Shown in pieces: positions 1 to 19,946 of a DNA stretch of 32,000 bases; position 1 is the first letter of the stretch, and every line of letters starts with the position of its first letter. This stretch comes from Pyrodictium delaneyi (GTDB taxonomy: Archaea; Thermoproteota; Thermoprotei_A; Sulfolobales; Pyrodictiaceae), in NCBI RefSeq assembly GCF_001412615.1, contig NZ_CP013011.1:1-32000 (forward strand), read 5' to 3'. The notes under the pieces were generated by a model. The model searched no databases. It was not told the origin of the DNA and saw nothing but the letters and a program-made list of their open reading frames with translations. The position numbers were made by a program, and so were the translations under genes.

Positions 1-11
1 GCACCGCCGCG

Positions 12-638
12 TCACCCCTCTGCCGCCGTGCTTGCTGGCTTGTTGGCCGCCAGCGGAGTGACGTAGCGGTCGAGCCCGCTCGGCTCCTGCTGCTCCGCCG
101 TCACCTTGAGGCGCTTGTCCTTGACGAGCTCGGGGTTCCTGGTGATGGTGATGAGCCAGCCTAGGATGCTGCGGAACTGTATGAGCCAGTGTATCGACGC
201 CTCTGCCGCGCGCCGCACGTACTCGTAGTCCAGCTTGCTCGGGCTGTCCATGCTGCTGAGCTCCTTCTCTATCTCGCTGAGCCTGACGCGGTTCAGCTCC
301 AGGGCCTCGCCGAGCGCCTTGTTGAGCCACTCCAGCACTGCCAGTATCACCGTGGGACGGGGCACGTAGACGCAGGGCGCCCCGCCAGCGCTGTAGCAGC
401 CCATGAACACGTCGGGACTCTCCTCGGCCAGCACGCCCAGCAGCCGCTGGATGTCCACAGTGCCCTCGAGCGCCCTGCCACGCTGAATGTCCAGCACCAC
501 AACGTCCATAGAGCCGCCGCCCACGCTCACTCGGACAGGGTTGCCGAACTCGCCGCCCACATCGTACCAGCGCCGCTCCCCGCCAGCCTTCCCCCTGACC
601 ACGGGAAGCCAACCATTACCGCCAGCCATCGTCACCAC
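12..638 (-). CDS. Hypothetical protein (provirus), 208 aa from GTG 638; ATG at 629 is an alternative start
   Basis: Long ORF with protein-like composition. A GGGGGTGGTGA SD-like run lies just upstream. Its start overlaps the stop of the upstream small ORF (TGGTGACGATG). Confidence 0.55.
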   Translation of the reverse strand: MVTMAGGNGWLPVVRGKAGGERRWYDVGGEFGNPVRVSVGGGSMDVVVLDIQRGRALEGTVDIQRLLGVLAEESPDVFMGCYSAGGAPCVYVPRPTVILAVLEWLNKALGEALELNRVRLSEIEKELSSMDSPSKLDYEYVRRAAEASIHWLIQFRSILGWLITITRNPELVKDKRLKVTAEQQEPSGLDRYVTPLAANKPASTAAEG

Positions 639-757
639 CCCCTCTTCACCACCTTCTCGTAGTAGTCGTGGGCGCCACGGAACCCCATGCAGCGGTCATA
701 GCACTCCTTGTTGTCGCCGCAGACCACGTGGCACGAGTCCCACCGAGACAGCACCAT
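632..757 (-). CDS. Small Cys-rich protein, 41 aa (MVLSRWDSCHVVCGDNKECYDRCMGFRGAHDYYEKVVKRGW), not in the ORF track
   Basis: Hand translation. ATG is preceded by GAGGGGTGA. The stop overlaps the start of the next gene. A C-x3-C-x5-C-x3-C pattern suggests a small metal-binding or disulfide module. Confidence 0.35.
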   Translation of the reverse strand: MVLSRWDSCHVVCGDNKECYDRCMGFRGAHDYYEKVVKRGW

Positions 758-764
758 CACCCGC

Positions 765-935
765 TCACCCCTCGGTCTCGTCCCTGTAGCGCAACGTCAC
801 CACGACCTCGAGATCTGTGCCTGGGACGTCGAAGCTGGCGCTGACGTGCGTGGCGCCGAGCCTCTCCAGCAGCGCCTTCATAGCACGCAGCAGCTCCCCG
901 TCCACAGGCAGCCTCTGCTGCAGAACCTGCACCAC
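765..935 (-). CDS. Small hypothetical protein, 56 aa (VVQVLQQRLPVDGELLRAMKALLERLGATHVSASFDVPGTDLEVVVTLRYRDETEG), not in the ORF track
   Basis: Hand translation. The GTG start lies 3 nt after GGGGGTGA, which also contains the stop of the upstream 84-aa ORF. Composition is far more protein-like than the Arg/Gly-rich 757..942 frame in the track. Confidence 0.4.
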   Translation of the reverse strand: MVQVLQQRLPVDGELLRAMKALLERLGATHVSASFDVPGTDLEVVVTLRYRDETEG

Positions 936-938
936 GGG

Positions 939-1193
939 TCACCCCCTTGGGCAGACAAGCTCAGCGATGAAGCGCGCATACCCGAGCTTGTAGGCCAGGT
1001 AGACCTTCTCCACGGGCGTCAGCTCCTCGCTGTTCAGTATCTCCTCGAGCACCTCGCTGACCTTGCTGTGCTCACGTACCCACTTCGCCAGCATGCCTGC
1101 TAGATCCTTGTGGCGCGCATCGTCTATCCCCAGCGCTTCCTCGACCGTCCTCTTGCTGTGGTCGAACCTGTAGGTGAACCGCACCATCCCCAT
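939..1193 (-). CDS. Hypothetical protein, 84 aa (provirus)
   Basis: ORF with balanced helical composition. It belongs to the same-strand chain of tightly packed ORFs. Confidence 0.55.
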   Translation of the reverse strand: MGMVRFTYRFDHSKRTVEEALGIDDARHKDLAGMLAKWVREHSKVSEVLEEILNSEELTPVEKVYLAYKLGYARFIAELVCPRG

Positions 1194-1199
1194 CCACCC

Positions 1200-1427
1200 C
1201 TAGGCCTTCCTCATCAAGGACCTGACAATCTTCGTCCTGAAGCCGTAGCTGCGTAGTATCCTCGCCATCTCCCTGGCGGTAGCCGCTGACTTGGCTTCGA
1301 GCACCACGCTGTCGGAGAGCGCATATGTTGTGAACCTTGCACCGAAACGAAGCGCTACATCGAAGACCTTCCCGACGCCGTCGCAGTCCTTAACTGGATA
1401 AGTGAACACATAGTATATCCTCGCCAC
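1200..1427 (-). CDS. Hypothetical small alpha/beta protein, about 75 aa from GTG 1427 (ORF open to 1472)
   Basis: GTG 1427 lies 7 nt downstream of AGGGGTGA and just after the stop of the RHH gene. The alternating beta/alpha-like pattern (ARIYYVFTYPV...VVLEAKSAATAREMARILRSYG) is protein-like. Confidence 0.5.
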   Translation of the reverse strand: MARIYYVFTYPVKDCDGVGKVFDVALRFGARFTTYALSDSVVLEAKSAATAREMARILRSYGFRTKIVRSLMRKA

Positions 1428-1440
1428 CGCGCGGTCACCC

Positions 1441-1668
1441 CTAGGCAGTGGCTGGAGCAGCCAGCCCAGCACGGGCTACCTTGCCGTGCATCCTCGCTAT
1501 CTTGCTGCGAAGCTGCTCGCTTAGCGTGCCAGTTGTTATCAACTCTACTATCGCTCTGGCTCCTAGCTCGTATATCTCATACTTCTTCATACCCAGGTCT
1601 ACAGCGAGGTGCTCTATAGTTCGGTCGAGCTCGGTGTCTACGTAGACCGACACGCGGGTGCGACTCAT
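1441..1668 (-). CDS. Ribbon-helix-helix (CopG/Arc-like) DNA-binding protein, about 75 aa from ATG 1668
   Basis: N-terminus MSRTRVSVYVDTELDRTIEHLAVDLGMKKYEIYELGARAI fits the RHH beta-strand/helix/helix pattern. GGGGTGGAG lies before the ATG. The TATA/operator module at 1706-1732 lies upstream. Confidence 0.6.
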   Translation of the reverse strand: MSRTRVSVYVDTELDRTIEHLAVDLGMKKYEIYELGARAIVELITTGTLSEQLRSKIARMHGKVARAGLAAPATA

Positions 1669-1705
1669 GGTTCTCCACCCCTGCGCACACGCGCAGTCGT
1701 GTAAC

Positions 1706-1732
1706 TGTACAGTTGCGCAGAAGTATAAAAGC
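1706..1732 (-). promoter_or_regulatory. Promoter module copy 1: TATA box (minus strand GCTTTTATAC) followed by pseudo-palindrome TGCGCAACTGTACA
   Basis: This 27-nt block is 23/27 identical to 2314-2340. It sits about 40-60 nt upstream of the RHH gene start. Confidence 0.6.
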
Positions 1733-1733
1733 A

Positions 1734-2294
1734 TTACTGAGTCTCGTCCAGGAAGCGCTGAAGAATGTTTATGACTCTGCGGATGGACTTCGCGTAGTTC
1801 ATAATAGCGTAGCGGTATAGCACGCTCTGCTTTTCAAGGGTAGAAACTAGCTCTTCGAGTTCGTGGACAGCTTTGCGCACCTTCTCCAGGTCCAGCTCTG
1901 CCTTCTGCTCCACCTTCTGCTCGACATGATGCACGTTAAGGTTGACAACTATCTGGCTGGCCTCGCTTATCTTCTGAATCTCAGCGCCAGAGAGCCTAGC
2001 GGTCGCCGCTATCGCTGCTCCTATGCTCTTCTTGAGAAGCTCCATGCGCCGCCTGTCTTCCCTGACAAACTTCTTATAGATGATCTTGTAGGCGAGAGGG
2101 AGTCTTATGCATAGTACATCTGTTGTCGAGAAGAGGTCCTGGGTGCTTAGGAGCCCCTCTATCTCCTTCCTAACTTGCTCTTCGGGAGTGTATACAGTAT
2201 ACATACTGTATACAGGCGCCCCTTCAGAATAGGGGGGAGAGCTATCTTCGGGTTCATGCTCATTTGCTCTTCTGAGCTTGCCCTCTTCATGCAT
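1734..2294 (-). CDS. Hypothetical protein, 186 aa, helical/coiled-coil-like C-terminal half (provirus)
   Basis: ATG start lies about 20-45 nt downstream of promoter module copy 2. The charged heptad-like stretch (EQKVEQKAELDLEKVRKAVHELEELV) is protein-like. Confidence 0.55.
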   Translation of the reverse strand: MHEEGKLRRANEHEPEDSSPPYSEGAPVYSMYTVYTPEEQVRKEIEGLLSTQDLFSTTDVLCIRLPLAYKIIYKKFVREDRRRMELLKKSIGAAIAATARLSGAEIQKISEASQIVVNLNVHHVEQKVEQKAELDLEKVRKAVHELEELVSTLEKQSVLYRYAIMNYAKSIRRVINILQRFLDETQ

Positions 2295-2313
2295 AACTGC
2301 ACACCAGTACAGA

Positions 2314-2340
2314 TGTACAATTGTGCACTAGTATAAAAGC
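2314..2340 (-). promoter_or_regulatory. Promoter module copy 2: TATA box plus pseudo-palindrome TGCACAATTGTACA
   Basis: Paralogous to 1706-1732, with the same spacing between TATA and palindrome. It lies directly upstream of the 186-aa gene. Confidence 0.6.
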
Positions 2341-2384
2341 GCTTAGGAGTACCTAAATAGATACACAACAGCATAGTAGAAGTG

Positions 2385-2398
2385 GTGCACAATTGTGA
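2385..2398 (+). promoter_or_regulatory. Third, inverted copy of the operator (GTGCACAATTGTGA) overlapping the start of the wHTH gene
   Basis: 12/14 match to the reverse complement of the copy-2 palindrome. A TATA-like CCTAAATAGATA at 2352-2363 lies about 25-30 nt upstream, implying a leaderless transcript starting near GTG 2395. Confidence 0.5.
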
Positions 2399-2640
2399 GC
2401 ATCGAGAAGCGCAGTCTCAAAGGCCAGATAAGGCTAATACTAAAGATGATGCAGATACTGGCTGAGAAGGAGCTTAACTTCAAGCAGATAGCCGAGGAGC
2501 TAGCCGTGCAGGAGAGGACAGTAAGCAAGTACGCAGAACTCCTCTATGATCTAGGCTTTGCAGACATAGAAATACGGGGCCCCAACAAGATAGTAAAGCT
2601 TACAGAAAAAGGACGATGTATAGTAAAATGCTTAGGCTAA
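2395..2640 (+). CDS. Winged helix-turn-helix transcription regulator, 81 aa (GTG start)
   Basis: LNFKQIAEELAVQERTVSKYAELLYDLGFADIEIRGPNKIVKLTEKG is a classic HTH plus wing pattern. The gene is divergent from the RHH/186-aa genes and shares their operator. Confidence 0.65.
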   Translation: MSIEKRSLKGQIRLILKMMQILAEKELNFKQIAEELAVQERTVSKYAELLYDLGFADIEIRGPNKIVKLTEKGRCIVKCLG

Positions 2641-2811
2641 GCCTAGCTCGCTACGCAGCTCGTCAAGGCTCATCTGCCTAATATGCTCCTTAACCAGAGT
2701 GTACCTTTTCCACGCATCCTCGAGATCCCTAGCCTTGGTGAAGACTTCATCCTCTATGAGCTCTAGTAGTCTTAGGATCTCTGCCTGTGTGCAGCCCACG
2801 GCTAGTCCCAT
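2632..2811 (-). CDS. Small hypothetical protein, 59 aa (MGLAVGCTQAEILRLLELIEDEVFTKARDLEDAWKRYTLVKEHIRQMSLDELRSELGLA)
   Basis: This is the only protein-like part of the 252-aa track ORF. It starts at ATG 2811, downstream of the 166-aa gene. Confidence 0.4.
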   Translation of the reverse strand: MGLAVGCTQAEILRLLELIEDEVFTKARDLEDAWKRYTLVKEHIRQMSLDELRSELGLA

Positions 2812-2882
2812 ATCTTGGAGTGCAGATGGGAGTGGATGAGGGAGAGGGGCGACATGATGTAAAAAGCTGGGCTGGGGGTGGG

Positions 2883-3383
2883 CTACTTCTCTGGTGTGCA
2901 TATGACGCCGTATGTGTAGCCTATTGCTGTCTTGCCGTCTACTAGGCCCTCTATGTGCAGCGAGTATGTCGCTCCTGGCTTGCATGGCTTGTCCAGCTCT
3001 ATCGCTATCTTGTAGCTGCCTGCGCCCTGTAGCTCCACGGTCTTGTCTACTATTCCGTTCCCTACGAGCACGTGTATCGCCGTGCAGTTCCTGTTGTAGA
3101 TGTTCAGCTCCAGGCGGTCGGAGCGCAGCATCGGCATACCTGTGACGCTGAACGCGCAGTAGGCCTCCTCCACGGGCTGCTCCTGCTTCACCACGGTGAC
3201 GCCGCTCGCAGTGGCGGTGGATGCCGTCGCCGCGTGGGTCGCTGTCGTGGCCGTTGTGGCTGCCTCCGTGGCTGTAGTTAGGGCTGTTGTAGTGCTTGTG
3301 GTCGCTGGCGTCTGCTGGGTGAGTATGTAGGCCGCTGCGGCTAGGGCTAGCGCAGCCAGCGCGGCGGCCAGAACCTTGTGCAA
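2883..3383 (-). CDS. Secreted or membrane-anchored protein with a Thr/Ala-rich linker and a C-terminal beta-rich domain, 166 aa (TTG start)
   Basis: N-terminal hydrophobic segment AAALAALALAAAAYIL is followed by TPATTSTTTALTTATEAATTATTATHAATASTATAS. A TATA-like TATATT lies about 28 nt upstream. Confidence 0.65.
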   Translation of the reverse strand: MHKVLAAALAALALAAAAYILTQQTPATTSTTTALTTATEAATTATTATHAATASTATASGVTVVKQEQPVEEAYCAFSVTGMPMLRSDRLELNIYNRNCTAIHVLVGNGIVDKTVELQGAGSYKIAIELDKPCKPGATYSLHIEGLVDGKTAIGYTYGVICTPEK

Positions 3384-3422
3384 GACCCATCAGTATTACC
3401 TATTCGCAATATAGGGGCTGGG

Positions 3423-5321
3423 CTAAAAAGGCAGAAGAGAACGTATGAATGCTACTACTGCACGCATCTTCTCCAGTATCCATGAGAAGAACTCGACCAC
3501 CTTGAAGGGGTCATAGACTAGTATCGCTACTACTAGCGCTGGGAACAGAGCCACCATTGCCTGCATTACTGGCCCCAGCAGCGTCACCTGCGATGCCGCC
3601 GCTCTAAACAAGTCCACGAACTTCCCGAAGAAGCTCCACACGTCGCTCATCAGATCCTTGAGCGGCTCTGGTATGAGGGCGGATACTCCCTGGACAATGT
3701 AGCTTCCAACGCTCTTCAGCGCGTCGTATAGTGGCGCGAAGACCGCCCGAAGCGCCCGTACCAAGGGGTTGGCGGGCTGGCTGGCGGTGTCGGGCCACAC
3801 GAGTACATCCACGTAGTATACTAGGTAGTAGCGTCTCGTTGCGTCCTCGAGCTTCACAGTCCACACGAACGTGAAGTTCGTGCTAGCATCCACGCTGGGC
3901 AGTTGGTCAGCGTAGCGGAAGGCTGGATCCCCAGCCCACAGGGTAGCGAAGCTCCTCTCCGTGATATCGAGTTCTCCGCCGTAGTAGCTAGTCCATGACA
4001 TACTGGTATCCGCGGGGTCGAAGCTGGTAGTCCACGACCATGACACCTGGGCGCACACGTAGTCGCTCACTGTGTGGTTGCTCTCGGTGACAACCATGCC
4101 GCTGGCCACGTCTACGGGCCACTCGCTGGACAACAGGTTCTCGAAGACTATCCACTCCGTGGCAGTCCCCGAGACCCCGCCAATCTGCCCGTTGAAGCCT
4201 ATGGGGAGCTGGGAGCCGCTTAGCGGGCTGATTACTACGTATTCCTCTTTCCTGCCGCCACATGTCGCTATTGTTAAGTTGTCGTAGGTGAAGTTGTAGG
4301 TGAAGCCCGTGGCGTCCGCTGTGCCAGTGTCGACTGTTGCACAATCGCCGAAGCAGTAGACGCTGCCGTCTCCAGGGATCGGGAATGTTAGGCTTATCGT
4401 TATCGTTGCTGTGAAGTTTGCTATCGAGGTATCGTTAACCCTTAGGTCTAGACCATAGGTGAATGGCGGGTGCGACAATGCGCCATAGTTTGTGAAGTTA
4501 TAGGCATTGAATATAGAGTCTATGGTGACGCTGTAGCTGCTGGGCGCTATCCAGGATGGTGGCTGCACGTAGATGCCCACGAGCCGTGTAATGTAGGAGC
4601 CATCGGCGCTATAGTAGTAGTAGAAGAAGTCCGAGGGAGACGCTAGGATACTGACAGTCCATGTAACTTTTACATAGTCGCCTGTAGCATCAACGACTAT
4701 GCGCTGGCTGGTTATCGTGATCGTGCCCGTCTTGTATGCTAGCGTCCACTCCTTGGTGAACACTTGAGTTACTAGTCCTGTGGTGTTCTCTACTCTCGTG
4801 CCCACAAAGGCTATAGGGTCTATGGTTGTACCGTTCTCGAGCACATAACCAGGTGCATATATGTATGTGAAACTCACTCTGCCACGTATAGTATTGTTGA
4901 ACGGGTTGAACATCACGTATGTATCATCATCTGCTTTCTCGCCATATAGTGTTGAGCGCACGTACTCGTGAATGTTCACCACGAAGTATGTCTCGTTTAT
5001 CAAGTCCGCTATAGTGTATGCCCTAGCGGTTTGCGTGGCGCTCGAGGATAGCGCTCTCCTCACTGGCTCGGGTAGGTGCCCCTGCCCCACTACCCAAAGC
5101 CTACCATGCTTATCCAGCACTGTGTAAAGCTGCTTACCCTTCCAGACCTTGAGCATCCACTCTAGCTGCTCCCTCGAGAAGTAGTCGTATATCCAGTGGG
5201 AGCCCCCGAAGAGAAGCTCTGGCTCCGTGACTCCTAGCGCCGCCAGTATGCTAGCCGCGTGGCTGTAGAGGACTAGGAATGTCAGTATGCCCGCTGCCAG
5301 CGCCCTCCGTAGCTTCCCCAC
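3423..5321 (-). CDS. Large envelope/fibre-like glycoprotein candidate, 632 aa, hydrophobic N- and C-termini
   Basis: GTG start abuts GGAGGTGAT. N-terminal signal/TM segment is ALAAGILTFLVLY. C-terminal hydrophobic segments are LLGPVMQAMVALFPALVVAILVY. I counted 11 N-x-S/T sequons by eye (NET, NNT, NGT, NTT, NFT x4, NDT, NLT, NHT). Confidence 0.8.
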   Translation of the reverse strand: MGKLRRALAAGILTFLVLYSHAASILAALGVTEPELLFGGSHWIYDYFSREQLEWMLKVWKGKQLYTVLDKHGRLWVVGQGHLPEPVRRALSSSATQTARAYTIADLINETYFVVNIHEYVRSTLYGEKADDDTYVMFNPFNNTIRGRVSFTYIYAPGYVLENGTTIDPIAFVGTRVENTTGLVTQVFTKEWTLAYKTGTITITSQRIVVDATGDYVKVTWTVSILASPSDFFYYYYSADGSYITRLVGIYVQPPSWIAPSSYSVTIDSIFNAYNFTNYGALSHPPFTYGLDLRVNDTSIANFTATITISLTFPIPGDGSVYCFGDCATVDTGTADATGFTYNFTYDNLTIATCGGRKEEYVVISPLSGSQLPIGFNGQIGGVSGTATEWIVFENLLSSEWPVDVASGMVVTESNHTVSDYVCAQVSWSWTTSFDPADTSMSWTSYYGGELDITERSFATLWAGDPAFRYADQLPSVDASTNFTFVWTVKLEDATRRYYLVYYVDVLVWPDTASQPANPLVRALRAVFAPLYDALKSVGSYIVQGVSALIPEPLKDLMSDVWSFFGKFVDLFRAAASQVTLLGPVMQAMVALFPALVVAILVYDPFKVVEFFSWILEKMRAVVAFIRSLLPF

Positions 5322-5334
5322 ATCACCTCCCCCG

Positions 5335-5622
5335 CTAGTAGATAATCAGTATCAGTACCGCAATCGGGCCGAACACGATAATCAGAGTAGCAATGATATC
5401 GACTAGCCCGCTAAGGTCTAGCACTACTGTCTTGTCCACCCAGGCAGTACCATTGTACTCCTTCACGGGGATAGTTATCGTCGAGAAACCGTTAGCGTTA
5501 ATCGTGTTAACAATGCTGTTCTTAGCTGCTATCGCTATGTCCAACAGGAATCCGTAGTAGACCACGAGGCTTATCAATCCTATAGCGAGGAGCTGCACCT
5601 TACGCTGAAGACTCCGCCTCAT
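5335..5622 (-). CDS. Small membrane protein, 95 aa, two hydrophobic helices, NGT sequon in the loop
   Basis: The ATGA overlap couples it to the 78-aa gene. Its C-terminal half (TVVLDLSGLVDIIATLIIVFGPIAVLILII) resembles the VDLS...hydrophobic helix region of the 78-aa protein. Confidence 0.65.
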   Translation of the reverse strand: MRRSLQRKVQLLAIGLISLVVYYGFLLDIAIAAKNSIVNTINANGFSTITIPVKEYNGTAWVDKTVVLDLSGLVDIIATLIIVFGPIAVLILIIY

Positions 5623-5855
5623 ATCTCGACACCCAGGTCTCTTAGGCCGCTAATGATTAGGAGAAGTGGTGCAAACACCTTCACGAGATCCCACATCACG
5701 CTTAGATCGACTGTCGTGCTGCCGATGGTTACTGCGCTGAGATCCATGTTGATGTTGCCTAGTATCGCTGCTATGGCTCCCGCTAGTCCAAGCTTCACTA
5801 TCCCTCGCAGAATCCGTCCAAGCCATGTGTTTGATACTGCGCTCTGCCAGGACAA
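5619..5855 (-). CDS. Small hydrophobic two-helix protein, 78 aa, capsid-protein-like paralog (TTG start)
   Basis: GGGGAG SD-like run lies 5 nt upstream. It shares GLAxxIxA, NM..GST.V.DL and GLR(D/K)xGV blocks with the 64-aa protein. Confidence 0.65.
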   Translation of the reverse strand: MSWQSAVSNTWLGRILRGIVKLGLAGAIAAILGNINMDLSAVTIGSTTVDLSVMWDLVKVFAPLLLIISGLRDLGVEI

Positions 5856-5864
5856 GACACTCCC

Positions 5865-5921
5865 CGACTAGAGTCGAATAAGAAAAAAGATTCTGGGATA
5901 AGACTGTTTCGACTCTAGTCG
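5865..5921. repeat. Perfect 14-bp inverted repeat (CGACTAGAGTCGAA / TTCGACTCTAGTCG) flanking a 29-nt loop that carries a T-run on the minus strand
   Basis: Read directly. It lies between the 64-aa and 78-aa genes. Minus-strand TCTTTTTTCTTATT may act as a terminator and/or a TATA-like element. Confidence 0.6.
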
Positions 5922-5925
5922 AAGG

Positions 5926-6120
5926 CTAGAGGCTCACGCCAGCCTTCCTCAGACCCTTAAAGAATAGGGCTAGTCCACCGAACGCTAGACCGAGCCCAGG
6001 AATGAAGCCTAGATCTATAGTCACTGTGGAGCCGCCGATTGTCATGTTGTACTGCATGTAGCCGCTTAGGGCGCTGGCGGTTGCGCCTCCTAGAGCCATT
6101 ATGGTGGCCGCTAGCCCCAT
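5926..6120 (-). CDS. Small hydrophobic two-helix protein, 64 aa, major-capsid-protein-like candidate with an NMT sequon in the inter-helix loop
   Basis: MGLAATIMALGGATASALSGYMQYNMTIGGSTVTIDLGFIPGLGLAFGGLALFFKGLRKAGVSL. The architecture (two hydrophobic helices, glycosylatable loop, about 60-75 aa) matches fusellovirus VP1/VP3-type capsid proteins. Confidence 0.65.
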   Translation of the reverse strand: MGLAATIMALGGATASALSGYMQYNMTIGGSTVTIDLGFIPGLGLAFGGLALFFKGLRKAGVSL

Positions 6121-6226
6121 GGTTACTAGGCCTATGAAGAGGTTCCTGCTGTACTTGCCTATGGTTTGCCTGCGCCTTGGCCTGTAGCGTCTGGCCAGAG
6201 TCCCACCCCGAGGCTCTCCGATTCTA

Positions 6227-6240
6227 CGACACTAGTCGAA
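6227..6240. promoter_or_regulatory. Third copy of the CGACnCTAGTCGAA palindromic motif, next to a TATA-like GATTAAATTC on the minus strand
   Basis: 13/14 match to 5910-5923. It lies in the divergent control region between the structural module (minus) and the RHH/ATPase/integrase module (plus). Confidence 0.45.
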
Positions 6241-6289
6241 AGAATTTAATCTTGGTGAATCCAGGATCATATACTGGTGACTCCGACGC

Positions 6290-6436
6290 ATGTCTAAGTC
6301 GGACTACGTGCAACGGACGGTTAGACTCCCAGCCAAGCTCGACGAGATGATAGAGCAGTACGCGAAGGAGTGGGGACTAACGTACCAGGATGCAATCGTG
6401 CACATACTCCTCGAGTGCTTCGAAGGTGAAGAGTAA
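6290..6436 (+). CDS. Ribbon-helix-helix protein, 48 aa (MSKSDYVQRTVRLPAKLDEMIEQYAKEWGLTYQDAIVHILLECFEGEE), not in the ORF track
   Basis: Hand translation. RTVRLPAKLDEMIE...AIVHILLE is the RHH signature. A TAATG stop/start overlap links it to the next ORF. Confidence 0.55.
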   Translation: MSKSDYVQRTVRLPAKLDEMIEQYAKEWGLTYQDAIVHILLECFEGEE

Positions 6437-6741
6437 TGCTGGGCTTCGGAAAGAAGGACTGTAGTCTAGACAGCTTTGGAGAAGACGAGATAGTAGAGTA
6501 CGTGGTCGCAAACCGCAGCGTTAGAGAAAAGCTCATAGAGCGTATCAAAGAGGACGTAGAGGATGCCCTCGAGGCTACGCTAGTCAACGCGATAAGGGCT
6601 GCCAACGAGAGGCCCCCGATATGGTGGCAGTGGCTCTTCCTGCTAGCAGCGGGGGCTATGGCTGGGCTTGGCCTCGGAATCGTGATTGCGATGAAAACGG
6701 GCATTGCTGGCGGGCCTAGTCTACCGCCGCCGCCAGGGTGA
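6436..6741 (+). CDS. Hypothetical protein with a C-terminal TM anchor, 101 aa
   Basis: WWQWLFLLAAGAMAGLGLGIVIAM hydrophobic segment. The ORF is translationally coupled on both sides. Confidence 0.55.
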   Translation: MLGFGKKDCSLDSFGEDEIVEYVVANRSVREKLIERIKEDVEDALEATLVNAIRAANERPPIWWQWLFLLAAGAMAGLGLGIVIAMKTGIAGGPSLPPPPG

Positions 6742-7082
6742 TCCCCGTGTCTGCCCCAGGGCCCACGGGCGACTATGGCTTTGCAGTCAAGGAGCTACTA
6801 GAGTATCTGCGGAATAAGGGCCAGATCTGGAGCGCTGCCCAGCTCGCTAGCATCCTGGCGATAGACCACTATGTGCGGAGCCGCTACAGGGTAGACCTTG
6901 GTCTGCAGAAGCTCGTCGACGACTGGGTAAGACATAGCGTCATAGAGGCTGCCAGGTTCGAGACCGTTGCGCAGCGTAACGCCAGCGTCGTAGCCAAGCT
7001 CGCTGCCCAGGTGAACTACGTAGAGGAGCAAGGTACACGGACGCGTGTGCTCCCCCTGGGTAGGAGAAGGAAGGAACAGTAG
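6738..7082 (+). CDS. Hypothetical protein, 114 aa, possibly wHTH-like (GTG start overlapping the upstream stop)
   Basis: GTGA overlap with the upstream ORF. Composition is protein-like (AVKELLEYLRNKGQIWSAAQLASILAI). Confidence 0.5.
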   Translation: MIPVSAPGPTGDYGFAVKELLEYLRNKGQIWSAAQLASILAIDHYVRSRYRVDLGLQKLVDDWVRHSVIEAARFETVAQRNASVVAKLAAQVNYVEEQGTRTRVLPLGRRRKEQ

Positions 7083-7097
7083 TATATGGTGTAAGCC

Positions 7098-7730
7098 TTG
7101 CAGGCCGCCGCAGCGGAGACCGCAGCGCTCGAGATACGCAGTGCCAGGCTGCGCTGGGTACGCCCTCTCCACCAGATCAACATAGTCGGGGTAATGGGCG
7201 CGGGCAAGACAACACTGCTCATGAAGCTCTGGGCTCTCTTCAAGCGCAATCACAGGCCCGCGACAAGCATCTACTTCCAGTTCGAGCGAGACCTGCTGGA
7301 CGAGTTCTGGGAAGCAGTGAAGAGCATAGAGACTCCCTACGCCTACGTGGCTATAGACGATATTAGCTTCGCCCTGAGCCGCGGGGATAGGGAATTCCTC
7401 CACAGCCTAACCAAGATACGCCATCTCAACCGCAGGGTGAAGAAGTGGGTAGTAGCCACTGCCATGCACTACGGCAAGGCTACTCTCCCATTCCTGCGAC
7501 AGAGCCACACCAAGGTGCTGCTGAGCCTAGTAGAGCCAGAGGAGATCGAGAGCCTACGCTGGAGCTTTACGGTGCAGGCTCTCTGGGACTACTACTACGT
7601 CTATGTCAGCGATCCACTAGGCCACTGGGCGCTCTTCAACTGGCTCGGCCAGATCTTCATAACACGGATACACAAGCCGCGCCGCGTACGATGCTGGGAC
7701 ATAGTTGTTAATGGGCCCGAGTGCGTCTAG
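7098..7730 (+). CDS. P-loop NTPase, 210 aa (TTG start)
   Basis: Walker A is GVMGAGKTTL and Walker B-like is YVAIDDISF. It lies immediately upstream of the integrase-N fragment. Confidence 0.75.
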   Translation: MQAAAAETAALEIRSARLRWVRPLHQINIVGVMGAGKTTLLMKLWALFKRNHRPATSIYFQFERDLLDEFWEAVKSIETPYAYVAIDDISFALSRGDREFLHSLTKIRHLNRRVKKWVVATAMHYGKATLPFLRQSHTKVLLSLVEPEEIESLRWSFTVQALWDYYYVYVSDPLGHWALFNWLGQIFITRIHKPRRVRCWDIVVNGPECV

Positions 7731-7922
7731 GTGGTGTTCATGCTCATAGAGGAGTATCTGATACGCATGCTTGAAGAGGATAGGGAGCTGCGGGAGCTGG
7801 CTAGGCAGCTGCCAGCGGATAGGCTGCGCGTGGCAGTGGAGCGGGCGCTTGCCTCTGCCAGGCAGGCAGCCTACACGGAGTTCAAGAGGAGCCTCAGAGC
7901 CATGCTGCTGCAATCCTGCTAG
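7731..7922 (+). CDS. Small helical hypothetical protein, 63 aa (GTG start abutting the ATPase stop)
   Basis: The TAGGTG junction with the ATPase gene suggests coupling. Composition is helical and charged. Confidence 0.4.
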   Translation: MVFMLIEEYLIRMLEEDRELRELARQLPADRLRVAVERALASARQAAYTEFKRSLRAMLLQSC

Positions 7923-8036
7923 TGTTGCAGTCGAGCTTCTTCCCCGTTGTTGCAGCAGAGCAATTCCGCCACGTAGCCTGACAGGTCTCTGATGAGGAGT
8001 TGGAGTATTCCTGAGCAGTGCGGGGTGGACTGAAAC

Positions 8037-8345
8037 ATGGTGCTGCAACCCATGTACGTGTATATCCGCAGCGTGCGCCGCGGTAAACGCGTCCACCGCT
8101 ACCTTGTGGTCGAAGAGTACCTAGGATCTGGTAGGCGCCGCACTCTTCTCCGCCTGCCAGCAGAAGAGGCAGGCAAACTACTCCTAGAGCTGGCAAGGAG
8201 AGGCATCTACAGCCAAGCAGAGTTAGAGAGGGTGTGGTGCGGGGGGTGGGATTTGAACCCACGCAGGCCTACGCCAGCGGGTCCTCAGCCCGCCCCCTTT
8301 GACCTGGCTCGGGCACCCCCGCACCCAGGTTGCTGGGCCGTGTAG
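8037..8345 (+). pseudogene. N-terminal fragment of a split SSV-type tyrosine integrase, Int(N), reading through attR/tRNA-Leu
   Basis: MYVYIRSVRRGKRVHRYLVVEEYLGSGRRR...LPAEEAGKLL resembles the basic beta-hairpin-like N-terminus of SSV1-type integrases. From about codon 67 the ORF is simply the antisense translation of the tRNA gene (GGWDLNPRRP from GGGATTTGAACCC). This is expected when attP lies inside the int gene. Confidence 0.55.
8235..8322 (-). tRNA. tRNA-Leu (anticodon GAG), class II, CCA encoded
   Basis: Folded by hand. Acceptor GCGGGGG/CCCCCGC. Anticodon stem GCGGG/CCCGC with loop CUGAGGA. Long variable arm. T-arm GUGGG-UUCAAAU-CCCAC. Discriminator A plus CCA. Confidence 0.9.
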
Positions 8346-8384: not shown

Positions 8385-8501
8385 TGGCGCCGGGGGCGGG
8401 ATTTGAACCCGCGCGCCCCTCCACGGGGCAGTGGGTCTCCCGACCCCTGGAGCCGGAAAAGGTCTCGAGCCCACCGCCTTGGACCGCTCGGCCACCCCGG
8501 C
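8385..8501 (-). tRNA. tRNA-Ser (anticodon CGA) with an intron of about 27 nt at the canonical 37/38 position (about 8437-8463), CCA encoded
   Basis: Acceptor GCCGGGG/CCCCGGC. D-arm GCCG-AGCGGUCCAA-GGC. Anticodon stem GUGGG/CCCAC with CUCGAG, the intron, then A. Long variable arm UGCCCCGUGGAGGGGCGC. T-arm GCGGG-UUCAAAU-CCCGC. Confidence 0.85.
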
Positions 8502-9876: not shown

Positions 9877-10075
9877 ACCCGCGGGCCTCCACCATCAAAC
9901 TCATGGGGAGGGGTCGGGGTTATTAAGCTCTACGTTTAGTAGGCTGCCCCTACTAGCGTTACATATGGATAAGTATTACTTATAGAGGCCTTCTCTAAGT
10001 TTACTAGCTTTATCCAGAGACCTAGGCGGGAGTAATTAAGTATGGATGACCCCACTCCGACTTTTAGGCCAGTAA

Positions 10076-10148
10076 GGGGGATGACGAGGTTCGCTAGGGG
10101 CGAGCACTATTTTGGCGATGAGCAAGTATGGCGGAGGCTGACCTCCCC
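10076..10148 (+). ncRNA. Candidate C/D-box sRNA
   Basis: C-like box AUGACGA (10081-87), 12-nt spacer, GCGA (D'-like), C'-like GCGAUGA (10115-21) and D box CUGA (10138-41). A 5-bp terminal stem pairs GGGGG with CCUCC. The second spacer is 16 nt rather than 12. Confidence 0.3.
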
Positions 10149-10193
10149 GGTTACACTGCTAACGTTTGGTACGTTTGGTCATGGCTACTAAGC

Positions 10194-11729
10194 CTAGCCT
10201 AGGCTTCCTCTTATTACTCCGGCACGCGCTATAGCTTGCTCGGCTGCCTCCTTTATGCCGAGCTTTATTGCGCGCTCGGCGCTTCGGAGCGTCTCTATGT
10301 ACTCCTCCTGGGGCTCTGGCGCGTTACCACCAATGAAGTCCCTAGTTATCGCTATGTCCTCCTTTAGTAGTTGTAGAGCCTTCTCGTCCTTAATGTAGCT
10401 CATTACTACTTCTGGGACATAGAACCTTATGTCGTATTCCGCGTCGCGCCTCAGGAGCGGTAGTACTTTTAGCAGATACTCTACAGCCTCGCTGCCTAGC
10501 TCTTTCTCTATTCTCTTGAGGCCTCTGCCTAGCCCGATTAGCGATGGTGGTATACCCATCGTGTAGAGACTGGCCGCATAGGATATTGCCCGAGGGAGTT
10601 TAAGGTCTCTAGGCGGCTTCATGGATAGGAGTTCCTTCTCCGCTGCGAACGCCAGGCTCTTGTCAATGCTGCGAGGGTATTCTCCATGCGAGAGTCTCGC
10701 TCTTCTTCGAGGTACAAAGGACGCCACATGAGGTATTAACTCGATTATACGCAACACGAACCTAAGGTATTCTGCCGTGAATAGCTTAGCTATGTTTATC
10801 AGCAGCTTTTCCTCATCCGCGCTCAGTATACGCGGTCTCTCATGTAGATTGTCTAGAAGTACATTCACAACCTTCTCGACTGCACGAGGACCTTGGTCAT
10901 ACCTTATGCCAGACTGTATTGTCGCAGTAGAGTATCCTCTATATTGCTTCACGAATATGTCAACGCTCCATGGGGACAAATGACCACGGAATGGCAGCGC
11001 GCCTACACCCATTATCGGGTGAACTCTAGTGTTCTCGTCCTCGGCCCACTTGTAGAGCCGCGAGAGAGCATAGACCAGCGCTATACTCGAAGCAGGATGC
11101 CCATAGGCTAAGGCCGTATCTGACTTGCCTAGGAGAACCCTATAGTGGCTATAGTGTAGCCCTAGGTGCGTAAGGAGCGCATTCTTCATACCTTCAAGGA
11201 TCTTATCTACATGGAGTAGCGACTCCATATCTTCGACGAGGGGTATAACCTCTATATAGCCTGTCTTTACACCTAGCTCTTCCTCCGCAAGACGTTGCAT
11301 CTTAAGGATTCTCCTCTGCAACACATAGACCTCATACCCGCTAGAACACATTGGAGTTATAATGTATCTTACTGCTGGCGAGCCGGCTTTGACGATAGAC
11401 TTCTTATTAGCTACTAACACGCCCCAAAGCACCATAATCTGGCGTTCCGGCTCCTCTAGCCTCTCCGAAGGTATGCGTGGTGTCAGTAGGAAGTCCTCAC
11501 CAGGCTGTAGACCATGCCGCAGGGTCTCCTCTACAACCCAGGCTACCTGATGGTACGGTGTGAGCTTACCCTCATAATCTATCATTTTTTCGTCAAGGCC
11601 CAAGCCACCACGACTGCGGGGGAGTAGATCGCGTAGAGCTTCCTCTACCTCCTCCTCTACACTGAACCCCCGACTAGCCGAATCCGGATGCTGAGTAGCC
11701 ATCGCCAGAGGTACTGGATACCCTAGCAC
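10194..11729 (-). CDS. ppcA: Archaeal-type phosphoenolpyruvate carboxylase, 511 aa
   Basis: The N-terminal VPLAMATQHPDSA motif and a length of about 510 aa are characteristic of the archaeal-type PEPC family. Confidence 0.85.
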   Translation of the reverse strand: MLGYPVPLAMATQHPDSASRGFSVEEEVEEALRDLLPRSRGGLGLDEKMIDYEGKLTPYHQVAWVVEETLRHGLQPGEDFLLTPRIPSERLEEPERQIMVLWGVLVANKKSIVKAGSPAVRYIITPMCSSGYEVYVLQRRILKMQRLAEEELGVKTGYIEVIPLVEDMESLLHVDKILEGMKNALLTHLGLHYSHYRVLLGKSDTALAYGHPASSIALVYALSRLYKWAEDENTRVHPIMGVGALPFRGHLSPWSVDIFVKQYRGYSTATIQSGIRYDQGPRAVEKVVNVLLDNLHERPRILSADEEKLLINIAKLFTAEYLRFVLRIIELIPHVASFVPRRRARLSHGEYPRSIDKSLAFAAEKELLSMKPPRDLKLPRAISYAASLYTMGIPPSLIGLGRGLKRIEKELGSEAVEYLLKVLPLLRRDAEYDIRFYVPEVVMSYIKDEKALQLLKEDIAITRDFIGGNAPEPQEEYIETLRSAERAIKLGIKEAAEQAIARAGVIRGSLG

Positions 11730-11855: not shown

Positions 11856-12803
11856 TTGGCCGGTAGCGTGCGGGTTAGGGCATATTCGAGTAGTGCTAAC
11901 CTAGGCCCTGGCTTCGACGTTCTAGCAGTAGCACATACAGCCTATTACGATGAAGTGGAAGTAAGGCTTGAGCCGGGTACAGGCCAAGTAGTTGTGGAGT
12001 CCGTCTACGGTCCTTATGCGTCCCAAGCAGGAAGAGCTGACACTGCGAGAAGGGCTGTAGAAGAGCTGCTAAAGATAACCGGAACAGACGTGAGCAACCA
12101 CGACATAGTTCTTCGCGTCTATAAAGGAGTCCCTCCTGGTAGAGGCCTTGGCAGCAGCGGTGCCTCAGCCGCTGCCGCTGTTAAGGCCGTCGAATTATTG
12201 CTCGACCTCAATGTATCAGATAGTATACTCGTAAAGGCAGCCGGCCGAGGCGAAGCTGCTGCTGCTGGTTCACCTCACTACGATAATGTTGCTGCAAGCC
12301 TACTCGGTGGCCTAACCATAGTCTCTTTCGATAAGGACGGGCAACTCTATGTATCCCGCATAGAGGTTGATGCTTGGTTTGCATTATTTGTACCAAAAAT
12401 AGAGATAGGTTCGTCAAAAACAAAACTTATGAGGGAGATTCTGCCCCGCCAAGTCAGCCTTGACATAGCAGCCAGAAACTGGGGTAGATTGGCCATGTTA
12501 ATCGCAGCTGCCATGAGGGGCGACCTCAGATTAATGGGTCACATGATGATGCAAGACGAAATCGTAGAACCAATTAGATCTAGATATATTCCATGCTATG
12601 ATACTGTCGTAGAAGCTGCATTGGAGGCTGGAGCTCTAGGAGTAACCATTAGCGGAGCAGGCCCAGCGCTAATAGCACTAGCTTCGTCGCGCGAGGACGC
12701 GACAAGGATAGCCGAAGCAATGACGAGGAGCTGCAAGTGCTGCGAGATAGAGGATGTAAAAATAGCCCAGACAGCCGGGCCAGCAACAAAGGTAAAGTGG
12801 TGA
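11856..12803 (+). CDS. thrB: Homoserine kinase, 315 aa (TTG 11856 or GTG 11868 start)
   Basis: SSANLGPGFDVLA and the GHMP-kinase motif PPGRGLGSSGASAAA. Confidence 0.9.
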   Translation: MAGSVRVRAYSSSANLGPGFDVLAVAHTAYYDEVEVRLEPGTGQVVVESVYGPYASQAGRADTARRAVEELLKITGTDVSNHDIVLRVYKGVPPGRGLGSSGASAAAAVKAVELLLDLNVSDSILVKAAGRGEAAAAGSPHYDNVAASLLGGLTIVSFDKDGQLYVSRIEVDAWFALFVPKIEIGSSKTKLMREILPRQVSLDIAARNWGRLAMLIAAAMRGDLRLMGHMMMQDEIVEPIRSRYIPCYDTVVEAALEAGALGVTISGAGPALIALASSREDATRIAEAMTRSCKCCEIEDVKIAQTAGPATKVKW

Positions 12804-19010: not shown

Positions 19011-19946
19011 TTACTTTGTCTGTAATATTTTGGCTAATACTTTGATTTCTTCCACTAATTGTTTCAATTTTTCTGGAATTGTTCCGGGTGCATAAGGGGA
19101 TGGAACACGTAACACCGGCATATCGTACTCCTTTGCTAACTCGAGCAGCCCAGCATCTGTGCGGGTAGCCGGATTGTCGTTAAGCACTGCTATGGCTGCA
19201 ACTGTTATCAGTTTATTCTTCATAAGTTTCCTAACTTGTTCTATATCATCCGGAGAGACCGGCACACCATGCTCCTTACTAAGAAGCTTTACAACATCTA
19301 TCCCTAGCCAGTTTACTGCATACTGTATATAGGGAAGCGAAGCTACGGCCTTGACATGGACTCTAGGCGCATTATTAATAAGCTTCTCAACCTCCGCCTC
19401 AAGCATCGAGGCCTGGCCCAGATAGTGGCTACTACAACTTGGTCTTAGAGCAGCTAGTCTAGCTGCAACCTCCTTTAAGAACAAGACATAGTTGTGGGGA
19501 TCGTATATTATCATGTGCGGATTTGCTACTCCTGTATCTGGATTGATGAGCAATCTCATACCCTTGATGCTTGGTATCTCCAGTAGCTTATCTTTACCTA
19601 CTAGCGACCTAAGTTTTATCTCGAAGGACGCATGCCCCAGAGTTATTACTAGATCAGCTTTCTTCACGTGCTCTATATCGTCTATTGTGAGCTGATATTC
19701 GTGTGGATCTACGCTGGACGATGATATAACATAGATCTTGTCATCGCTACAGAGTAGCTGGGATACCTCGTTTTTCAGATTAGGAAAGCTAACAACTATG
19801 AGGAGACCGTCTTCTCTGTCACCGTCTGCGGAGCTATCCGTTTGCCTAATGGTATACATGGTTAATAGCGCTGTCAGGGCAAGAGTAGCTAGTATTAGCG
19901 GTACTAGTGGGCGCCACCTATCCATACATGTCTCCCGAGACATCAT
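19011..19946 (-). CDS. TroA/ZnuA-like metal ABC transporter substrate-binding protein (start at ATG 19946/19943 or 19925; the track extends to GTG 19958)
   Basis: Signal/TM segment is RWRPLVPLILATLALTALL. DPHEYQLTIDDIEHVKKADLVITLGHASFE is typical of cluster-9 binding proteins. Confidence 0.8.
   Translation of the reverse strand: MMSRETCMDRWRPLVPLILATLALTALLTMYTIRQTDSSADGDREDGLLIVVSFPNLKNEVSQLLCSDDKIYVISSSSVDPHEYQLTIDDIEHVKKADLVITLGHASFEIKLRSLVGKDKLLEIPSIKGMRLLINPDTGVANPHMIIYDPHNYVLFLKEVAARLAALRPSCSSHYLGQASMLEAEVEKLINNAPRVHVKAVASLPYIQYAVNWLGIDVVKLLSKEHGVPVSPDDIEQVRKLMKNKLITVAAIAVLNDNPATRTDAGLLELAKEYDMPVLRVPSPYAPGTIPEKLKQLVEEIKVLAKILQTK

Follow-up and report, generated by a model that had tools for sequence, protein, structure and literature searches.

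A probable split SSV-type integrase gene at the tRNA-Leu(GAG) gene of Pyrodictium delaneyi and the provirus-like element that it probably marks

The window analysed here is a stretch of 32,000 nucleotides (32 kb) from Pyrodictium delaneyi (contig NZ_CP013011.1, positions 1 to 32,000) in which an open reading frame (ORF) on the plus strand runs antisense through an entire tRNA-Leu gene. A sequence-only reading of the locus had taken the ORF for the N-terminal fragment, Int(N), of an SSV-type integrase that is fused to an att site at a tRNA junction. This identification is borne out by homology to the integrase of the virus APOV1, by the in-frame position of att, by the empty site found in P. 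delaneyi strain Hulk and by the behaviour of the homologues in other genomes. The SSV1 integrase (D-335) is the prototype of the type I or 'suicidal' archaeal integrases in the classification of She et al. (review PMC8371274), and the P. delaneyi locus resembles it in that attP lies inside the int gene about 65 codons from its start, overlaps the 3' part of a tRNA gene and would leave int split into int(N) and int(C) upon integration. The insertion of a circular element carrying such an integrase into the tRNA-Leu(GAG) gene is, with a high degree of likelihood, the overall explanation of the locus. The mechanism is already known, and the published description of suicidal integrases fits the course of events proposed here (review PMC8371274); the provirus of P. 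delaneyi is previously undescribed.

The open reading frame and its integrase homology

The three features at the junction are the following.

8037 to 8345, plus strand: int(N) ORF, ATG to stop, 102 aa, very probably the 5' part of an SSV-type integrase gene that has been split
8235 to 8322, minus strand: intact host tRNA-Leu(GAG) gene (ARAGORN), of which the 3' ~60 nt would be the integration target
8231 to 8298, no strand assigned: att region of inferred extent, the tRNA-proximal junction, named attR in the sequence-only reading

The ORF is present exactly as it had been quoted, from ATG to stop, and its 102-aa translation in the ORF list is MVLQPMYVYIRSVRRGKRVHRYLVVEEYLGSGRRR...WCGGWDLNPRRPTPAGPQPAPFDLARAPPHPGCWAV*. 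From W67 onwards, which amounts to its last 37 codons, the ORF is the antisense of the whole tRNA-Leu(GAG) gene and takes in the CCA and acceptor stem, the T arm, the variable arm, the anticodon arm and the D arm, after which it extends 23 nt into the host flank and meets a fortuitous stop. The earlier description of this tail as antisense tRNA therefore holds, but its restriction to the T arm and variable arm was too narrow, as both ARAGORN and the Rfam tRNA match (8238..8322, 54.8 bits) place the complete tRNA within the ORF. The frame is a composite in which codons 1-64 are viral, codons 65-88 belong to att and are common to the virus and the tRNA, and codons 89-102 are made up of the 5' half of the host tRNA and its flank. 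The tRNA is identical to the one at the Hulk empty site. A second tRNA gene is located 65 nt from tRNA-Leu at 8388-8501 on the minus strand (114 nt; Rfam, 41 bits); it is missed by ARAGORN, and by eye it can be read as a tRNA-Ser(CGA) gene that has an intron of ~26 nt following its anticodon loop.

Pfam and PHROGs searches with ORF 8037-8345 return no family match, and the ORF contains no catalytic domain. Its affiliation is apparent from comparison with APOV1, which is integrated in a tRNA-Leu gene of A. pernix K1 (PMC5882108) and encodes an integrase of the SSV1 type (bioRxiv 10.1101/2021.04.21.440749); the protein is annotated as 'putative SSV-type integrase', and PF16795, the catalytic domain of archaeal integrases, is detected in it (E 9.5e-55). 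Residues 1-87 of the ORF align with residues 17-99 of the APOV1 integrase at 54% identity over 87 aa (E 2e-29) in BLASTP, and the match is also found by tblastn, while residues 1-55 alone, which lie outside the tRNA, are 51% identical over 55 aa (BLASTP, E 2e-16). A profile of seven full-length integrases has a sole match in the six-frame translation of the window, namely the int(N) ORF (E 1e-27, profile positions 14-89). Because residues 1-55 match the APOV1 integrase on their own and the integrase profile matches only this ORF, the part outside the tRNA is not open by chance. Comparison of the sequences makes it very probable that ORF 8037-8345 represents the promoter-proximal part, int(N), of an integrase gene of the suicidal (SSV-type, type I) kind. 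Among known members of this kind the APOV1 gene is the closest, and the P. delaneyi gene is seen in the window as its int(N) half only.

The alignment of the first ~66 aa to the N-termini of SSV-type integrases, which had been suggested as a check, accordingly finds homology to the N-terminus of the APOV1 integrase. The likeness to the N-terminus of SSV1 specifically, which had also been claimed, lacks statistical support: PF07935, the N-terminal domain of SSV1 ORF D-335-like proteins, does not match ORF 8037-8345 at E <= 0.1 and its gathering threshold is not reached, and hhalign of int(N) against SSV1-type N-terminal alignments gives E values of 0.035-0.2 at a probability below 2% (1.5% at E 0.035). 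The hhalign register is the one implied by the earlier reading (KGRxYxY...EY..G...), and some distant Int(N) relatives (P0098, P0108 and P0112) do match PF07935.

The att site and the empty site in strain Hulk

The left limit of att is defined as the first base identical to the Hulk empty site and the right limit as the point at which identity with the attP segment of APOV1 int ceases. Positions 8234-8298 (65 nt) are 95.4% identical at the nucleotide level to APOV1 12506-12570, which are located inside int in the same frame and at the same in-frame position, and both elements target tRNA-Leu, although the anticodon within att is GAG in the P. delaneyi element and TAA in APOV1. The att site starts at codon ~65-66 of int(N), and the annotated integration site of SSV1 covers codons 64-78 of its int gene. 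The SSV1 att encodes 'DPPGFEPGTSG', unlike the tRNA-Leu-derived peptide of the P. delaneyi int(N). Two properties that identify SSV-type integrases are found at this locus: a recombination site inside the integrase ORF that matches part of a tRNA gene (att 8231/8234-8298) and N-terminal homology to an established member, the APOV1 integrase.

The contig NCQP01000002.1 stems from P. delaneyi strain Hulk (PMC5556600) and contains the same tRNA-Leu(GAG) gene as an empty site. From the junction and tRNA rightwards the two strains are 99.84% identical over 15.7 kb, and identity starts at 8231 with no mismatches in the next 2 kb, whereas leftwards of this position the match is at random level only. 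To the left of its tRNA-Leu(GAG) gene Hulk has host DNA of low GC content that contains an ORF of 111 aa and an AMP/thymidine-phosphorylase-like gene, and this left flank runs ...GAGAAGCTAAGGGAA up to position 5421 of the Hulk segment used for comparison (L002). As Hulk is identical from 8231 onwards and unrelated to the left, positions 1-8230 constitute a strain-specific insertion with its right junction at 8230/8231, and as the flanks are 99.84% identical between the strains and fully identical for 2 kb beside the junction, the insertion is recent. A tRNA-Leu(TAA) gene is also present on the minus strand of the Hulk segment (2573-2660), with 2.85 kb between it and the empty tRNA-Leu(GAG) site on its right. 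The two are 95% identical over 100 nt, which makes the tRNA-Leu(TAA) gene a potential alternative target for the APOV1-like integrase family.

It is proposed that the P. delaneyi chromosome underwent recombination with a circular, virus-like element whose tyrosine integrase was of the SSV type ('suicidal', type I). The attP site inside the int ORF, ~65 codons from its start, would have paired with its identical counterpart, the 3'-terminal ~60-65 nt of the tRNA-Leu(GAG) gene, and the crossover would have restored a complete tRNA gene while dividing int into two parts. The 64 promoter-proximal viral codons (8037-8230) would now be read via att into the antisense tRNA as far as the chance stop at 8345. 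The catalytic half, int(C), should be found on the plus strand at the far end of the element, which lies to the left of the window; there it would follow a second copy of att, and its ORF would begin in att (...WCGGWDLNPRRPTPAGPQPAP...).

Split and rejoined integrases in related elements

The proposed course of events can be compared with the homologues of int(N). A search of 5.8 billion proteins with ORF 8037-8345 yields 134 relatives, at least 120 of which are 56-169 aa in length, and all are short among the matches listed. The aligned relatives (n=41) possess an N-terminal motif, (M)YVYIxxVxxxGRxYxYLVxEEYLGxGKRRT, which is followed by the tRNA-encoded WCGGWDLNPRRPTPxGPxPxPFDxARAPPH. All 41 homologues, like the ORF in the window, continue into the 5' half of the tRNA ('PFDxARAPPH'), whereas the free form of APOV1 diverges after att ('...PAP'); as far as the sequences tell, this continuation marks the integrated state from within the ORF itself. 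In a scan of one genome per species the N-terminal motif is found at 24 loci, and a metagenome scan adds seven more. The split Int(N) ends in an opposite-strand tRNA-Leu gene in all 27 of the 27 loci examined, and these tRNA-Leu genes include all five anticodons (GAG, CAG, TAG, TAA and CAA). At three loci (L010, L013 and L020) the same N-terminus instead runs into a full-length integrase of ~340-360 aa, with neither a tRNA nor a second Int(N) copy. Scans of IMG/VR and of JGI metagenomes with the Int(N) profile recover only APOV1 itself and further split Int(N)/tRNA-Leu junctions.

The complete arrangement is found in locus L016 (JALWEI010000010.1), a metagenome-assembled genome (MAG) of the Acidilobaceae, which contains homologues of the window ORFs at 3423-7730 in the same order and orientation and at ~30-74% aa identity. 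Like the element in the window it ends in an Int(N) fused to tRNA-Leu, and it has the full architecture of att, int(C), genes, int(N) and att. Its perfect 61-nt direct repeats (10168-10228 and 19219-19279) are 9,051 bp apart, and rejoining of Int(N), att and Int(C) produces an uninterrupted ORF of 1,083 nt encoding 360 aa. L016 differs from the window in that its Int(N) (P0048) is only ~48% identical to that of the window, in that its left half has no detectable match to window positions 1-3400, and in that its target is tRNA-Leu(TAG), where it seems to follow a further element in tandem. In L025, a Thermodiscus MAG, 66-nt repeats are located ~8.1 kb apart and the two halves rejoin into a 356-aa ORF. 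The catalytic domain PF16795 is present in the integrases of APOV1, L025 and L016. The sequence context around KxxR and the terminal Y that has been described in SSV1-type enzymes (review PMC8371274) recurs in the rejoined proteins and in the APOV1 integrase; the R...KxxR...Y arrangement within PF16795 that characterises SSV1 is present in homologues of the P. delaneyi int(N). Decay is also encountered: L017 has the same repeat-flanked layout with an int(C) that contains stops and frameshifts and represents a decayed copy, and int(C) is truncated in L005.

Several further observations on these loci are worth recording. The two att copies of L017 (5319-5379 and 10157-10217) differ at the anticodon (CTC versus CTG on the plus strand, for GAG versus CAG), and two further bases differ as well. 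This could reflect the insertion into tRNA-Leu(CAG) of an element whose attP was of the GAG type, or else later mutation of the copies. At the left repeat of L016, positions 9965-11026 encode an intact 353-aa integrase with PF16795 whose N-terminal part is unlike the Int(N) at the right end. From its sequence this ORF looks like the Int(N) of the neighbouring tandem element fused via att to the Int(C) of L016, and on this reading a tandem insertion would provide the chromosome with a complete 'suicidal' integrase gene again, in chimeric form. No third att copy was detected within the 10 kb on the left side of the L016 left repeat. Another MAG (L004) carries at 2650-2937 an Int(N) that is 75% identical to that of the window and lies beside the same spermidine synthase neighbour. 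Its upstream side holds glycosyltransferase and phosphodiesterase genes within ~700 bp of Int(N), the contig ends 2.6 kb upstream, and this Int(N) may be a solo remnant.

On a metagenome contig (L003), positions 5749-6150 are 88.4% identical at the nucleotide level to window positions 7924-8327, a segment that comprises int(N) and the 113 nt upstream of it, and the two elements have nothing else in common. Since L003 is unrelated yet 88% identical over this stretch, and the syntenic L016 has an Int(N) that is only ~48% identical, the int(N)/att module of ~400 bp appears to be exchanged between otherwise unrelated elements.

The provirus-like element, the predicted far half of int and competing readings

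The insertion to the left of the junction contains the following features.

1 to 8230, no strand assigned: right-hand 8.2 kb of an integrated provirus-like element, absent from Hulk and continuing past the left edge of the window
3423 to 5321, minus strand: largest provirus gene (ORF list), 632 aa, hydrophobic at both ends, 28% identical to its L016 homologue over the full length
5335 to 5855, minus strand: two small hydrophobic provirus ORFs of 95 and 78 aa, with 42% and 62% aa identity to L016
6436 to 7082, plus strand: two small provirus ORFs of 101 and 114 aa, with 65% and 74% aa identity to L016
7098 to 7730, plus strand: P-loop NTPase, 210 aa, with weak AAA/P-loop Pfam matches that are all below cut-off and a match to the DnaA-like phrog_5484 at E 0.02
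7731 to 7922, plus strand: small ORF of 63 aa between the ATPase and int(N) (ORF list), without family match
7924 to 8036, plus strand: upstream region of int(N), kept together with int(N) in the otherwise unrelated L003 and presumably the int promoter or leader

The GC content of the insertion is 56.3%, as against 51.5% in the rest of the window and 46.9% in the left flank of Hulk. Within it, the leftmost ~1.5 kb (window 1-1500) reach 62-66% GC compared to ~50-59% in the rest of the element, which suggests a mosaic origin. A block of minus-strand genes that includes the 632-aa gene lies to the left of the NTPase region. The NTPase is 62% identical to its homologue in L016 and has weak matches to ORFs of spindle-shaped viruses of the Nitrosopumilaceae (thaumarchaeal), and it takes the same position upstream of int(N) as the DnaA-like ATPase upstream of int in APOV1, which likewise has a small ORF in between. 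The 632-aa protein is a candidate virion or envelope protein; it has no match in Pfam, PHROGs or a phage database, nor one at the nucleotide level, and is unlike both APOV1 orf9 and SSV1 VP4. At the other end of the insertion, the product of the minus-strand ORF 12-638 is 99% identical to a 'hypothetical protein [Pyrodictium delaneyi]'. A 27-nt direct repeat (TGTACAnTTGnGCAnnAGTATAAAAGC), the copies of which are 85% identical, occurs at window positions 1706-1732 and 2314-2340, ~600 bp apart and near the starts of two divergent provirus genes, and could serve the provirus as a common promoter or operator element.

The integrase fragment is the only gene of the element with a match in APOV1 or in any catalogued virus, and when all 21 APOV1 proteins are compared with the window by tblastn the integrase N-terminus is the sole match. 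The element differs from APOV1 in all of its other genes and in its host, as Pyrodictium belongs to another family than Aeropyrum. A placement in the Guttaviridae as an APOV1-like member (Betaguttavirus) was rejected because gene content beyond the integrase is not common to the two, and a placement in the Fuselloviridae was rejected because the element is not a recognisable fusellovirus and its 632-aa protein is unlike SSV1 VP4. No literature linking P. delaneyi to a provirus was found. We infer that the element is viral rather than a plasmid. More tentatively, positions 1-8230 could be the right arm of a recently acquired, possibly inducible Pyrodictium virus of an undescribed group whose sole link to catalogued viruses is the exchangeable APOV1-like int(N)/att module.

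The sequence-only reading had proposed that a matching Int(C) should be sought at the other end of the element. Neither tblastn with the APOV1 integrase nor the profile of seven full-length integrases applied to all six frames detects int(C) or any PF16795-like sequence in the 32-kb window, which does not contain a second att copy either. A search with an Int(C) profile, which scored 8000 candidates at most, returns 60 PF16795 proteins, none of them from the P. delaneyi source contig; the candidate set was probably crowded by tRNA-antisense ORFs since the query included the att peptide, and the result does not argue that the protein is absent. Because such elements are often larger than 10 kb, the absence of int(C) from the 8.2 kb at hand means little, and int(C) is likewise not seen at most of the split-Int(N) loci for which at least ~10 kb of upstream sequence are available. 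Genomic Int(C) ORFs are typically called from a TTG inside the T arm ('MNPRRPTP...'), including APE_0716.1, the split Int(C) of APOV1 in A. pernix K1. As the insertion is recent and the syntenic relative is intact, the element's own int(C) probably exists at the far end and rejoins in frame with int(N).

The same search results could be accommodated if the locus were a decayed or solo remnant, a genuine Int(N) relic that has lost its int(C) or far att, or retains them in degraded form, and that persists as a fixed genomic island from which no functional integrase can be rebuilt. Both the lack of int(C) in the available 8.2 kb and the lack of a P. delaneyi protein in the Int(C) profile search agree with this, and decay does occur in relatives, as the stops and frameshifts of L017 and the truncation in L005 testify. 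A remnant is nevertheless unlikely given the recent date of the insertion, with 99.84% identical flanks that do not differ for 2 kb beside the junction, and given that int(N) and its adjoining ORFs are open and conserved with L016, an intact element; the unseen int(C) is moreover shared with most split loci that have ~10 kb or more of upstream sequence, and elements often exceed 10 kb.

A second reading takes Int(N) to be functional in its present form, with the 66-aa N-terminal domain expressed from its retained promoter and acting on incoming or resident integrases, for example by interference or through control of excision. The start codon and the upstream region are kept, all homologues remain open ORFs, and the ~400-bp module has 88% nucleotide identity in the otherwise unrelated L003. 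In addition, the N-terminal extremity of IntSSV2 controls multimerisation (review PMC8371274). The openness of the frame through att, however, is forced by the free form of the gene, and the passage through the remainder of the tRNA is short (15 more codons), which leaves a function for Int(N) improbable.

Two other readings are refuted. The ORF could have been an intact classical integrase of the pNOB8 or phage lambda kind, enzymes for which tRNA genes likewise serve as targets (review PMC8371274), or a small host gene in its own right, in either case unsplit and merely abutting the tRNA; but it has no catalytic domain, ends 23 nt past the tRNA and is absent from Hulk, its homologues run into PF16795 only where the tRNA is absent, and att is inside the coding frame, which defines the SSV type. 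The pNOB8-type (type II, classical) integrases were rejected as a class for this gene on the same grounds, as a type II gene stays intact with att outside whereas this ORF is truncated at an att inside its coding frame. Nor is it a chance ORF that stays open in GC-rich DNA antisense to a tRNA and resembles an integrase only by illusion: GC-rich archaeal DNA yields many spurious ORFs, several of which overlap this region on both strands, and the peptide WCGGWDLNPRRPTP, which the tRNA encodes, reappears in any antisense reading of tRNA-Leu or tRNA-Ser (for example in matches of ~30% coverage), yet the part outside the tRNA matches the N-terminus of the APOV1 integrase and dozens of Int(N) ORFs, and is absent at the Hulk empty site.

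The insertion of a circular element with a suicidal integrase, which remains the preferred explanation, accounts for an ORF antisense to a tRNA, which should be treated in annotation as a pseudogene fragment rather than a protein, and it places at 8230/8231 the exact right-hand limit of a mobile element by which two near-identical P. delaneyi strains differ. The known mechanism of suicidal integration is left unchanged by this finding. The points that go beyond it are only mildly novel and all comparative, namely the use of tRNA-Leu genes of all anticodons, the apparent mobility of the int(N)/att module and the apparent formation of a chimeric int by tandem integration. The APOV1-like branch of suicidal integrases is extended to the Pyrodictiaceae, and in the comparative set this branch consistently targets tRNA-Leu genes, with every anticodon represented.
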